Shown piece after piece: positions 1 through 4,849 of a stretch of DNA of 5,472 nucleotides (the first letter of the stretch is position 1; each line of letters begins with the position of its first letter). Below the pieces are notes generated by a model. That model was given only the letters and a program-made list of their open reading frames with translations, had not been told where the DNA came from and made no database searches. The stretch lies in the NCBI RefSeq assembly GCF_003334315.1, contig NZ_QOWR01000094.1; one strand, given 5' to 3'. This stretch comes from Escherichia coli (GTDB lineage Bacteria > Pseudomonadota > Gammaproteobacteria > Enterobacterales > Enterobacteriaceae). The translations under genes were made by a program, and so were the position numbers.

Positions 1-870
1 TTTGCGGTGATCCCGGCAGACAGAACATGGCGACCACAGCCGTTGCTGAAACCGCTGGTCGACGGCCCGCAGAGCGCTGTCGTGACAGGACCGGCAGGCG
101 AGGAAATCTTCTGCGACGAACATGGTCACGTGCGGGTGAAGTTCAACTGGGACCGTTATAACCCGGCAGACCAAGACAGTTCGTGCTGGATCCGTGTGGC
201 ACAGGCGTGGGCAGGCACCGGTTTTGGCCACCTGGCGATACCGCGTGTGGGTCAGGAGGTGATTGTAGACTTCCTCAACGGCGATCCGGACCAGCCGATC
301 ATTATGGGGCGCACCTACCACCAGGAAAACCGCACCCCCGGCAGCCTGCCGGGAACAAAGACGCAGATGACCATCCGCTCCAAAACGTACATGGGCAGCG
401 GATTTAATGAGCTGAAGTTTGATGATGCGACAGGGAGAGAACAGGTCTACATCCACGCGCAGAAGAACATGGATACCGAAGTGCTCAACGACCGTACCAC
501 CACCGTAAAACACGATCACCGCGAAACCGTAAAAAATGACCAGACGGTCACGATCCAGGAAGGTAACCGCCTTCTTACGGTGGAAAAAGGCCACAAGATC
601 ACCGGAGTACTGAAAGGGTCTTTATCTGAGGATGTCTTTCAGGACAGAGGCACGATTGCCGGTTCGGTGCATGTTGACGCTGTAAACAATGGTGGCGAAG
701 GCGACGGTATACAGGCTTATACGGCGATTAAGGAAATTTTGCTGGCTGTGGAGGAAAGCAAAATTGCGCTGACGCCGGATGGCATTCAGCTACAGGTCGG
801 GGAATCGACGGTAATCAGGCTGTCGAAGGATGGCATCACCATCGTGGGCGGTTCTGTTTTCATCAACTGA
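1..870 (+). CDS. vgrG: T6SS spike protein VgrG (TssI), C-terminal 289 codons; 5'-partial, gene begins upstream of the window
   Basis: The frame is open from nt 1 (ttt gcg gtg ...) to TGA at 868-870; the track ORF 7-870 is the same frame starting from an internal GTG. The translation carries motifs I recognise from VgrG gp5-like/OB-fold regions (SSCWIRVAQAWAG, IPRVGQEVIVDFLNGDPDQPIIMGRTYH, TQMTIRSKT, ELKFDD) and a repetitive C-terminal beta-strand-like region. Its position directly upstream of an Eag chaperone and a PAAR-Rhs gene fits the canonical vgrG-eag-rhs arrangement. Family assignment is from recall, not a search. Confidence 0.9.
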   Translation, partial: FAVIPADRTWRPQPLLKPLVDGPQSAVVTGPAGEEIFCDEHGHVRVKFNWDRYNPADQDSSCWIRVAQAWAGTGFGHLAIPRVGQEVIVDFLNGDPDQPIIMGRTYHQENRTPGSLPGTKTQMTIRSKTYMGSGFNELKFDDATGREQVYIHAQKNMDTEVLNDRTTTVKHDHRETVKNDQTVTIQEGNRLLTVEKGHKITGVLKGSLSEDVFQDRGTIAGSVHVDAVNNGGEGDGIQAYTAIKEILLAVEESKIALTPDGIQLQVGESTVIRLSKDGITIVGGSVFIN

Positions 871-897
871 TTCACTCAGATTATCAGGGAGTATTTT

Positions 898-2821: not shown

Positions 2822-4849
2822 TACATTCTGCGCCGCCGCGATGATTACCTGGAGCTGTTCGACAGGGATGCCCTGAGCAGCCGCTTCTTTTATGACGCCT
2901 TTCCGGGAATGCGCCTGCGCCACCCGGTGACTGACGATACCGACGATGACCGTCTGGCACACAGCCCCGCAGACCGGATGTACATGCTGGGCGGGATGAG
3001 CGACACCGCCAGCAACCGCATCACGTTTGAGCGCGACAGCCAGTACCGGATCACAGGTGTCAGTCACACCGACGGGATCCGGCTTAAACTGACGTACCAT
3101 GCCAGCGGCTACCTGAAAGCCATTCACCGCACGGATAACGGCATACAGACGCTGGCGACCTACGAACAGGATGCGCGGGGGCGGCTGACCGAAGCGGATG
3201 CGCGGCTGGACTACCACCTGTTTTATGAGTACGACGCTGCGGACCGGATCATCCGCTGGTCCGATAACGACCAGACGTGGAGCCGTTTCACCTACGATGA
3301 ACAGGGCCGGTGCGTGACCGTCACCGGGGCGGAGGGCTATTACAACGCCACGCTGGACTATGGTGACGGCTGCACCACCCTGACGGACGGCAAGGGCACT
3401 CACCGTTATTACTATGATCCCGACGGCAATATTCTGCGGGAAGCAGCGCCGGACGGCAGCACCACCACGTATGAATGGGATGAATTCCATCACCTGCTGG
3501 CCCGCCACTCCCCTGCCGGGCGGGTGGAGAAGTTTGAATACAACGCCGCACACGGTCAGTTAAGCCGTTATACGGCGGCAGACAGCGCGGTGTGGCAGTA
3601 CCGCTATGATGAGCGCGGCCTGCTCAGCAACATCACCGACCCAGCCGGGCAGACGTGGACACAGCAGTGTGATGAACGCGGCCTGCCGGTAAGTCTGGTG
3701 TCGCCACAGGGCGAAGAGACCCGGCTGGCGTACACGCCGCAGGGGCTGCTGTCGGGGATATTCCGCCAGGATGAACGGCGTCTGGGCATAGAGTACGACC
3801 ACCACAACCGGCCGGAAACACTCACCGACGTGATGGGCCGTGAACACCACACCGAATACAGTGGTCACGACCTGCCGGTGAAGATGCGCGGCCCCGGCGG
3901 TCAGTCAGTGCGGTTACAGTGGCAGCAGCACCATAAACTGAGCGGCATTGAACGTGCTGGAACCGGTGCGGAAGGATTTCGCTATGACCGCCACGGCAAC
4001 CTGCTGGCCTGGACGGACGGCAACGGCGTTGTCTGGACGATGGAATACGGCCCGTTCGATTTGCCGGTGGCGCGAACGGACGGTGAAGGCCACCGCTGGC
4101 AGTACCGCTACGATAAAGACACGCTGCAACTGACAGAAGTCATCAATCCGCAGGGCGAGTCATACCGTTATATTCTGGACAACTGTGGACGGGTAACGGA
4201 AGAGCGTGACTGGGGCGGCGTGGTCTGGCGTTACCGCTATGACGCCGATGGCCTGTGTACCGCCAGGGTCAACGGCCTGGAGGAAACCATCCTCTACAGC
4301 CGGGACGCCGCAGGCCGCCTGGCAGAAGTCATCACGCCGGAAGGCAAAACGCAGTATGCCTATGACAAATCCGGCAGGCTGACGGGTATCTTCAGCCCGG
4401 ACGGCACATCACAGCGCACCGGCTACGACGAACGCGGGCGGGTGAATGTCACCACTCAGGGCCGACGGGCCATTGAATACCACTACCCCGACGAACACAC
4501 CGTCATCCGCTGTATCCTGCCACCGGAAGATGAACGCGACAGACACCCCGATGAATCCCTGCTGAAAACCACGTACCGCTACAACGCCGCCGGAGAACTG
4601 ACGGAGGTCTTTCTGCCGGGGGATGAGACGCTGACGTTCAGCCGTGATGAGGCGGGACGTGAAGTGCTCCGGCACAGTAACCGGGGTTTTGCCTGTGAGC
4701 AGGGCTGGAATGCAGCCGGCCAGCTTACCAGCCAGCGCGCCGGATTTTTCCCGGAGGAAACCACATGGGGCGGGCTGCTCCCCCAGGGAAAGATCATCAA
4801 AAGTTCACTTTTTGCACTAAATAATTCGCATTTTATGTTTAAAAATTGA
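2822..4849 (+). pseudogene. rhs: Continuation of the same rhs gene (YD-repeat core) in the same frame after the internal TAG; 3'-truncated by an ISAs1-family element, with the last ~18 codons and the stop read from the IS-end sequence. Gene callers would report ORF 2909-4849.
   Basis: 1379 and 2909 are in the same frame (2909-1379 = 1530 = 3 x 510). Codons 2822-2908 are open and read as plausible protein (YILRRRDDYLELFDRDALSSRFFYDAFPG). There is no credible SD before ATG 2909. The translation is full of Rhs/YD-repeat signatures (YEYDAADR, YYYDPDGN, YRYDERG, YRYDADG, YAYDKSGRL, YRYNAAGEL). Only about 757 codons of core are present after the core start (~2543), which is shorter than a complete Rhs core (roughly 1200 aa) as I recall it, and there is no PxxxxDPxGL motif or C-terminal toxin domain. 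The ORF tail GKIIKSSLFALNNSHFMFKN is encoded by AT-rich sequence. Confidence 0.85.

Follow-up and report, generated by a model that had tools for sequence, protein, structure and literature searches.

Does a gene cassette that joins a vgrG, an eag chaperone gene and the 5' part of an rhs effector gene still specify a working T6SS effector, and where has its toxin gone? We address this question for a stretch of 5,472 nt of Escherichia coli DNA (NZ_QOWR01000094.1), hereafter the window, which is 99.96% identical to the region between cusS and nfrB of E. coli CP53 and differs from it by two SNPs, one at position 2819 and the other a synonymous change at 3421. The comparison identifies the window as part of the E. 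coli chromosome and as a decayed allele of an orphan T6SS effector island located between cusS and nfrB. The 5' part of the rhs gene was found in 2,132 of 5,426 complete E. coli genomes (the island in about 2,130), and most of the copies sampled are annotated either as an Rhs core protein or by the name of a toxin (metallopeptidase, restriction-endonuclease-fold or other), some being pseudogenes.

The vgrGO1-eagR-rhs-ct island of E. coli (Ma et al. 2017, Environ Microbiol 19:345), as far as the summaries in PMC6730261 and PMC7216683 describe it, has the same gene order and the same vgrG-DUF1795-PAAR-Rhs architecture as the window, with the EDL933 genes named z0707 (vgrG1), z0706 (eagR) and z0705 (rhs). 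From this gene order and the locus-tag numbering, the published island would correspond to the cusS-nfrB locus, and the RefSeq toxin names of cusS-nfrB alleles match the published Rhs-CT1 (metallopeptidase-4) and Rhs-CT3 (restriction endonuclease). The island type, its dependence on a chaperone and its polymorphic toxins are already known for E. coli. From the published island the window copy differs by its missing parts (the final third of the effector, the toxin and the immunity genes) and by a premature stop at codon 481. Ordinary decay has made it a pseudogene allele.

An earlier note on this DNA had proposed three consecutive genes on one strand with spacers of 19-27 nt, and this arrangement is confirmed. 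The 3' part of vgrG (1-870), eag (898-1359) and rhs (from 1379) all lie on the plus strand, separated by 27 nt (871-897) and 19 nt (1360-1378), with Shine-Dalgarno sequences ahead of eag (AGGGAG, 8 nt upstream of the start) and of rhs (GAGGGA). The identity of vgrG within the proposed canonical module also stands, with the qualification that the gene is partial in the window, which holds residues 345-633 of a 633-aa VgrG and its stop (868-870); the complete gene (633 aa) is annotated in CP53. The 289-aa fragment matches TIGR03361 (E=4e-88, 296 bits, cut-off 186) and TIGR01646 (E=1.2e-62, 212 bits, cut-off 122), bases 1-555 corresponding to the conserved gp5-like region and bases 556-867 encoding the cargo-specific C-terminal tip.

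T6SS core genes, which had been expected in the wider locus, are absent from the 20 kb on either side of the island in CP53 and present farther away. This near-identical genome carries a cluster at aspV, about 320 kb distant, that comprises tssA-C, tssE-G, tssJ-M, clpV, two hcp genes and a vgrG, together with a tagH cut by IS3. The cusS-nfrB cassette is an orphan island. Its VgrG is 92% identical to the VgrG of the aspV cluster over residues 1-529 and unrelated to it beyond.

The chaperone gene eag/eagR (898-1359) is intact, and the assignment of its 153-aa product to DUF1795 proved sound. The protein matches Pfam PF08786 (DcrB, formerly DUF1795) along the whole length of the model (E=1.7e-27), and among solved structures it matches EagT6 (6xrf, E=1.1e-5) and PA0094 (1tu1, E=1.2e-5). 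Its accession, WP_001160804.1, recurs in other loci compared, among them LR-17-1 and loci that retain the toxin end. Across the window, an Rfam search returned no RNA families, antisense ORFs of 345, 165 and 128 aa gave no family matches, and promoter- and terminator-like sites did not exceed shuffled expectation.

The third gene (1379-4783, plus strand) is an rhs pseudogene with the class I order of prePAAR, TMD, PAAR, postPAAR and Rhs shell, whose frame is broken by a stop at codon 481 and cut off after codon 1135. The best solved homologue of its product is the Photorhabdus laumondii VgrG-EagR-Rhs1(Tre23) complex (PDB 7pq5, E=2.3e-48). The prePAAR motif, the TMD and the PAAR domain listed in the earlier note are all present, and PAAR, DUF6531 and YD-repeat models match the frame that begins at 1379 significantly. 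The prePAAR motif AARLGDEIQH (residues 54-63; 1538-1567) can be read directly and conforms to AARxxDxxxH as defined in PMC7773334, and Pfam prePAAR_I (PF25799) matches residues 54-100 at E=4.8e-5. A hydrophobic region spanning residues ~63-108 (1565-1702), in which a 19-residue Kyte-Doolittle window reaches a maximum of 2.1, aligns to the TMD1 region of Tre23 and is the predicted Eag-binding site. The PAAR domain (1772-2308) lies in two pieces, residues 132-153 and 266-310, matched by Pfam PAAR_motif at E=0.0073 and 3.1e-10, respectively, and by NF033420 at E=7.9e-13; a poly-Pro-rich insert of ~98 aa (residues 156-253) splits the domain, and the 7pq5 alignment joins query residue 155 to residue 254.

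Downstream of the PAAR domain, a postPAAR hydrophobic helix (hydropathy segment 324-344) and an LGK-rich stretch together span residues 322-376 (2342-2506) and include a 9-nt tandem repeat array detected by TRF at 2402-2446; in Tre23 the postPAAR region is the second EagR site (PMC8636562). The DUF6531 or N-terminal plug region (2555-2758; Pfam DUF6531, E=7.7e-13) opens with DPVDPVTG, which aligns to the N-terminal autocleavage region of Tre23, where the cleavage motif has been described (PMC8636562). The YD-repeat shell that follows (residues 482-1135; 2822-4783) is incomplete: TIGR01643 YD_repeat matches in seven stretches (E=5.3e-68), and the RHS_core model finds a partial match only.

Features common to the rhs product and Tre23 are the prePAAR motif, TMD1, the PAAR domain, the postPAAR region, an N-terminal cleavage region of DP type and the first part of the shell; unlike Tre23, the E. 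coli protein carries the insert within its PAAR domain, and the window copy lacks the C-terminal plug and toxin. A wider comparison set is given by class I prePAAR effectors and Eag proteins (Salmonella Rhs1-SciW, P. protegens RhsA-EagR1 and P. aeruginosa EagT6; PMC7773334), which have in common with the window AARxxDxxxH, a TMD N-terminal to PAAR, YD repeats and an adjoining DUF1795 gene. In contrast to these systems, the effector of the window is truncated, and its Eag protein is distant in sequence from EagT6 (E ~1e-5). Judged by published homologues, the Eag dimer of an intact island would shield the N-terminal TMD and the postPAAR helix of the effector, while prePAAR and PAAR would together form a cone seated on the cognate VgrG tip. 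The Rhs shell would hold a polymorphic C-terminal toxin that is released by a DPLGL aspartyl protease plug, the downstream gene would confer immunity, and the complex would be fired by a T6SS encoded elsewhere on the chromosome.

Where, then, does the effector end? Comparisons of alleles and of IS termini place the deletion junction at 4783-4784, with the last rhs base fused to the left inverted repeat of ISEc1, CAGGGAAAGATCATCA. The allele of PigCaeca_1 is identical through 4783 and proceeds into further rhs sequence, whereas the window proceeds as the exact ISEc1 terminus. Locus L006, identical through 4783, then reads TCACTGG, and in both L006 and L003 the rhs gene goes on past this point. 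The extension of rhs to 4849 in the earlier note is therefore not upheld: positions 4784-4849 (plus strand) are the left end of ISEc1 in frame, an IS-encoded read-through tail of 21 codons and a stop. The junction is present in 39 of the 5,426 complete genomes.

An allele that continues beyond the breakpoint, that of STEC1589, encodes further RHS repeats, DPLGL at residues 1444 and 1466 and a Tox-MPTase4 domain (E=1.6e-32), followed by small ORFs. The window has neither the aspartyl-protease plug (DPxGL motifs) nor a C-terminal toxin domain, and no immunity gene lies between rhs and the IS, in agreement with the earlier note, which had left two fates for the payload, a position beyond the IS or outright loss. 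The second holds and the first does not. In CP53, which has the same junction, nfrB follows 260 bp after the IS with no immunity gene there, and LR-17-1 has the same gene order; the window itself ends at 5472, and what follows, namely the right half of the IS and nfrB, is known solely from these near-identical genomes. Since nfrB directly follows the IS in the closest genomes, the comparison identifies the toxin end of the effector as missing and its payload as lost from the island. To judge from its sequence, what remains of rhs most likely no longer works as an effector, and a lineage lacking the immunity gene would be expected to grow sensitive to relatives that keep the matching toxin.

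The window contains the left 689 bp (4784-5472, plus strand) of a 1,291-bp ISEc1/H-rep element of the ISAs1 family, and this left part is of the yhhI (RhsB-associated) type; the transposase CDS begins at 4928, runs off the end of the window and matches NF033564 (E=1.4e-67, 228 bits, cut-off 70). In the five loci compared (CP53, K-12 and three others), the termini CAGGGAAAGATCATCA and CGTAATCTTGCCCTG, which form imperfect inverted repeats, lie 1,291 bp apart. ISEc1 is also present in three fetched loci in which rhs extends beyond the breakpoint (L002, L003 and L006), and the right flank up to nfrB shows 0 differences in 260 bp from L002 and L006, both of which keep the toxin end. This shared flank marks ISEc1 as a resident component of the ancestral island rather than a fresh insertion, and the truncation consequently as something other than a simple insertion.

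The composition of the element points to how the truncation arose. At the 26 sites that separate yhhI-type from resident sequence, the first 12 (IS positions 17-657) are yhhI-type and the last 14 (IS positions 709-1268) are resident-type, with a single switch between them. The 689 bp in the window are 100% identical to the yhhI copy of GF4, and the best matches of the left half outside the clade are all yhhI copies. The K-12 yhhI, a 1,291-bp ISAs1-family element with the same termini that lies next to rhsB, differs over the left half at three sites and the GF4 copy at none; unlike the K-12 yhhI/H-rep, the window-type element combines two sequence types by recombination and sits immediately next to the coding sequence of the rhs shell. 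CP53's own yhhI was considered as donor of the left half and rejected on 16 mismatches, a GF4-type yhhI fitting exactly. The CP53 and K-12 yhhI copies differ from each other at 26 sites, and ISEc1 copies are mosaic in general.

The chimera of yhhI and resident sequence indicates the insertion of a second ISEc1 into rhs, followed by recombination between this element and the resident one. We consider it highly probable that the window holds a decayed vgrGO1-eagR-rhs-ct allele from which IS-IS recombination removed toxin and immunity, with a nonsense mutation at codon 481 following, and as such it exemplifies island decay. The second ISEc1, of the yhhI sequence type, would have entered rhs after codon 1135 and recombined with the resident ISEc1 at the right end of the island. 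The resulting deletion of ~2.5 kb would have taken the equivalent of one IS together with the last ~300 shell residues, the autoprotease plug and the toxin and immunity genes, and the already dead rhs would later have gained the CAG to TAG change. No direct repeats that could represent a target-site duplication flank the ISEc1 copies of CP53 or K-12, as expected after IS-IS recombination. The 9 bp to the left (CTGCTCCCC) and to the right (CTGCTCACC) agree in 8 of 9 positions and were examined as a possible target duplication. The left one, however, belongs to normal rhs sequence, no repeats flank the K-12 H-rep, and the agreement may be due to chance.

The same product could also be reached by yhhI conversion of the resident IS together with an independent adjacent deletion in one step. 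In this ISEc1-mediated event the resident IS would have attacked rhs intramolecularly with its left end, and the chimera would be an unrelated gene conversion. Such a history would account both for a fusion that coincides exactly with the IS terminus and for the absence of a target duplication at the element, and ISEc1 copies are visibly mosaic from genome to genome. It nevertheless needs two independent events in place of a single history of insertion plus recombination, and the one clean crossover, with 12 sites on one side and 14 on the other, is the trace expected of recombination between two direct IS copies. We therefore give the one-step deletion only a small chance and retain recombination between two ISEc1 copies as the preferred reading.

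The remnant was further shortened by an in-frame TAG at codon 481 (2819-2821, plus strand), a nonsense change from CAG. CP53 has C at 2819 and its rhs frame stays open as far as the IS, although RefSeq annotates that copy too as a pseudogene lacking its C-terminus. The version with T at 2819 occurs in 0 of the 5,426 complete E. coli genomes and the version with C (CAG) in 2,165; on this count the TAG is identified as a private C to T change. The single continuous ORF of 1379-4849 assumed in the earlier note does not exist, the TAG splitting off the first 480 aa, and the predicted products of the remnant are 1,135 residues long in the 39-genome clade and 480 in the window. Two other origins of the TAG were rejected: sharing with another complete E. 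coli genome, by the counts just given with CAG as the control, and gene conversion, for which the candidate donor, a 180-bp piece of rhs adjoining the IS in STEC1589, has CAG as well.

A single-base difference from 2,165 genomes that no other complete genome carries might also be a sequencing or assembly error, in which case the true state would be that of CP53, truncated but open. Once truncation has inactivated a gene, however, private nonsense mutations are to be expected in it; the one further difference between the window and CP53 is synonymous and of an ordinary kind, and the sequence context at 2819, which contains no homopolymer, gives no hint of error. We regard an error as unlikely.

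Could the remnant instead have been kept for another role? The toxin-less N-terminal Rhs and Eag might serve as a PAAR cap for VgrG that aids T6SS assembly or firing without a toxin. Neither vgrG nor eag is damaged, loci retaining the toxin end encode an identical Eag protein, and in CP53 the rhs frame runs open as far as the IS. Moreover, the N-terminal region of Tre23 alone binds EagR and VgrG in vitro, its prePAAR-PAAR portion sufficing in pull-downs (PMC8636562), and Ahmad et al. (PMC7773334) note that a subset of natural effectors is encoded by two ORFs, one for prePAAR-TMD-PAAR and one for Rhs. Set against these points, the rarity of the junction and the uniqueness of the TAG fit recent neutral decay, and the main cluster of CP53 has its own VgrG and Rhs core protein. 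The sequences, with two SNPs between the window and CP53, are too similar for a selection test. We hold retention as a cap to be very improbable. Just as improbable is its extension, in which the former effector would have become a pure spike-sharpening subunit, the aspV T6SS would fire with the island VgrG and the TAG allele would be a natural 'split' form. The ATG at 2909, examined as a restart codon for such a split effector, was rejected: it lacks a Shine-Dalgarno sequence, and a product starting there would in any case be without its C-terminus.

The importance of the window copy beyond annotation is slight. For annotation, it illustrates that a long 'ORF' can conceal a stop in its frame as well as 66 nt of read-through into an IS.

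Within the nearest genome, that of E. coli CP53, the window sequence lies on the chromosome between cusS and nfrB (99.96% identity, two SNPs). An ORF search recovered three genes on the plus strand, namely a vgrG fragment entering across the window's left edge (7/1-870), a 153-aa eag gene (898-1359), and an rhs frame starting at 1379. They are separated by spacers of 27 and then 19 nt, and good Shine-Dalgarno sequences precede eag (AGGGAG) and rhs (GAGGGA), which bears out the gene layout read in the earlier note. The single uninterrupted third frame proposed there (1379-4849) does not survive translation; an in-frame TAG at 2819-2821 occupies rhs codon 481, so that the ORF finder returns a 480-aa product and a 646-aa remainder. 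G+C is about 0.61 up to approximately position 4780 and 0.33-0.45 beyond it. A search of the window against Rfam gave no family, its antisense ORFs match no family, and its promoter- and terminator-like sites show no excess over shuffled expectation.

Profile searches identify all three proteins. The left fragment matches the curated VgrG models TIGR03361 (E=4e-88) and TIGR01646 (E=1.2e-62), both well over the model cut-offs. The 153-aa protein covers the whole of Pfam PF08786 (E=1.7e-27), the family now named DcrB and previously DUF1795, confirming the proposed chaperone identity; it also matches the solved chaperone EagT6 (6xrf) and PA0094 (1tu1), both at ~1e-5. In the 480-aa Rhs part, AARLGDEIQH (residues 54-63) scores as prePAAR_I (E=4.8e-5) and is followed by a strongly hydrophobic segment (residues 63-108), a PAAR domain in two pieces (132-153 and 266-310), a second hydrophobic helix (324-344) leading into an LGK-rich stretch, and DUF6531 (393-460). 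The part downstream of the TAG gives seven YD-repeat matches (E=5e-68) and fits the RHS core model only in part. This architecture agrees with the class I prePAAR effectors described by Ahmad et al. (PMC7773334), Rhs proteins in which a TMD region precedes PAAR. It agrees as well with the prePAAR-TMD1-PAAR-postPAAR-shell layout that Jurenas et al. describe, where EagR binds TMD1 and postPAAR while prePAAR-PAAR binds the VgrG tip (PMC8636562). The identification of an Rhs effector with prePAAR, TMD and PAAR is therefore correct.

The nearest solved homologue of this Rhs protein is a T6SS Rhs effector, Tre23/Rhs1 from Photorhabdus laumondii (7pq5, E=2.3e-48), which, unlike the E. coli protein, lacks a ~98-residue insert within PAAR. 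The insert (window 1844-2137, residues 156-253) contains six consecutive prolines (PPPPPP) and a stretch of moderate hydrophobicity, and the alignment with P. protegens RhsA (7q97) has a gap at the same position. The LGK-rich postPAAR stretch is encoded by about five copies of a 9-nt tandem repeat, CTGGGGAAA (window 2402-2476).

Of 5,426 complete E. coli genomes, 2,132 carry the rhs 5' part, and the names given to its copies in a spread sample are mostly those of a zincin-like metallopeptidase, a restriction-endonuclease-fold protein, a DUF8616 protein or simply an RHS core protein. Judged by its gene order and toxin types, the cusS-nfrB locus appears to be the orphan island 'vgrGO1-eagR/DUF1795-rhs-ct' published by Ma et al. 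in 2017. According to the summaries of that work in PMC6730261 and PMC7216683, Rhs-CT1 (metallopeptidase-4) and Rhs-CT3 (REase-3) were shown to act as T6SS-dependent antibacterial toxins that require the upstream vgrG and DUF1795 genes, and the EDL933 copy comprises vgrG1 z0707, eagR z0706 and rhs z0705. The locus type is already published, and the earlier interpretation is right in kind.

Three loci with rhs sequence past the breakpoint were fetched, from STEC1589, CUPS SST 5/1 and PigCaeca_1. All three share the order cusS - vgrG - eag - rhs - small ORFs - ISEc1 - nfrB, so the IS belongs to the island as a resident element. Between the IS and nfrB, the 260-bp right flank shows no difference among CP53, CUPS SST 5/1 and PigCaeca_1. 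Only the STEC1589 rhs is annotated intact (1,620 aa); the other two are pseudogenes, through a frameshift in one and an internal stop in the other. Past the breakpoint, the STEC1589 gene encodes more RHS repeats, two DPLGL autoprotease motifs (residues 1444 and 1466) and Tox-MPTase4 (E=1.6e-32). The PigCaeca_1 allele equals the window up to and including base 4783. From there PigCaeca_1 carries on with rhs (TCACTGG...), whereas the window runs into ISEc1/H-rep (1,291 bp), beginning precisely at its left terminus, CAGGGAAAGATCATCA. Consequently rhs ends at codon 1135, and 4784-4849 is IS read in frame. The earlier note allowed that the payload sat beyond the IS or had been lost; nfrB starts 260 bp past the IS in CP53, so the payload was deleted, not displaced. 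The window holds a pseudogene allele that has lost toxin, autoprotease plug and immunity genes, most probably by IS-IS recombination; its rhs-IS junction is present in only 39 of 5,426 genomes.

At 26 sites distinguishing the yhhI-type ISEc1 (next to rhsB in strain GF4) from the PigCaeca_1 resident copy, the lineage's IS (window 4784-5472, IS positions 1-689; CP53 region L001, 24784-26074) is of yhhI type at the first 12 of 12 (IS positions 17-657) and of resident type at the last 14 of 14 (709-1268). It is a clean chimera, with a crossover at approximately 5441-5491, the window's right edge, and the best left-half matches outside the 39-genome clade are all yhhI copies. The simplest account would be a two-step history, in which a yhhI-type ISEc1 entered rhs at 4783/4784 in direct orientation and later, by a crossover with the resident copy somewhere in IS positions 658-708, removed ~2.5 kb together with one IS equivalent. 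A one-step adjacent deletion with an unrelated gene conversion might give the same structure, since mosaicism is general among ISEc1 copies, though we consider this improbable.

The 9 bp left of the IS (window 4775-4783, CTGCTCCCC) are genuine rhs sequence and match the 9 bp to its right (L001 26076-26084, CTGCTCACC) at 8 of 9 positions; K-12 H-rep has no comparable flanks, and the likeness could be chance or target preference. In STEC1589, a 180-bp orphan rhs fragment (L003 14315-14494; 94% identity to window 2803-2982) directly adjoins the left end of the resident ISEc1, a relic of an earlier rearrangement between IS and rhs in the same island. In LR-17-1, which shares the junction, an IS1 has since inserted into the ISEc1 left end, between truncated rhs and the transposase gene (L010 6284-7221).

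CP53 has CAG at the TAG codon, the remaining difference from the window being a synonymous C/T at 3421, and the rhs fragment adjoining the IS in STEC1589 has CAG as well. A 49-mer centred on the T is absent from the complete E. coli genomes searched (0 of 5,426) and its C version is present in 2,165, so the TAG is a private nonsense change in an already truncated gene or, possibly, a sequencing error. The 480-aa product would stop ~85 residues past DPVDPVTG, a motif that lines up with the Tre23 region of N-terminal autocleavage, and would thus keep prePAAR, TMD, PAAR and postPAAR. In pull-downs those regions of Tre23 were enough to bind EagR and VgrG (PMC8636562), which would leave a small chance that the product serves as a toxin-less PAAR cap; the rarity of the junction and the uniqueness of the TAG to the window argue against such a role.

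The T6SS core genes expected in the wider locus are absent within 20 kb either side of the island in CP53, and are found ~320 kb away in a cluster at aspV encoding tssB, C, E, F, G, J, K, L (DotU), H (ClpV), A and M, together with two hcp, one vgrG and one Rhs core protein. The VgrGs of the island and of the cluster are 92% identical over residues 1-529 and unrelated beyond, the pattern expected for a spike paralogue whose tip is specific to its own cargo. Relative to STEC1589 VgrG, the island protein has a 51-bp indel (17 aa, QLQVGESTVIRLSKDGI; window 785-870) flanked by PDGI/KDGI, a length variation at the cargo-binding tip. In the aspV cluster (L005/L004, 3.656-3.686 Mb), tagH (FHA) is split by IS3, and IS5, IS1 and a partial ISAs1 border the Rhs region; the CP53 apparatus may itself be impaired. 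CP53 rhsB and the adjacent yhhI ISEc1 transposase (L008 5425-11747) both contain internal stops, and several Rhs loci are thus decaying in this lineage.
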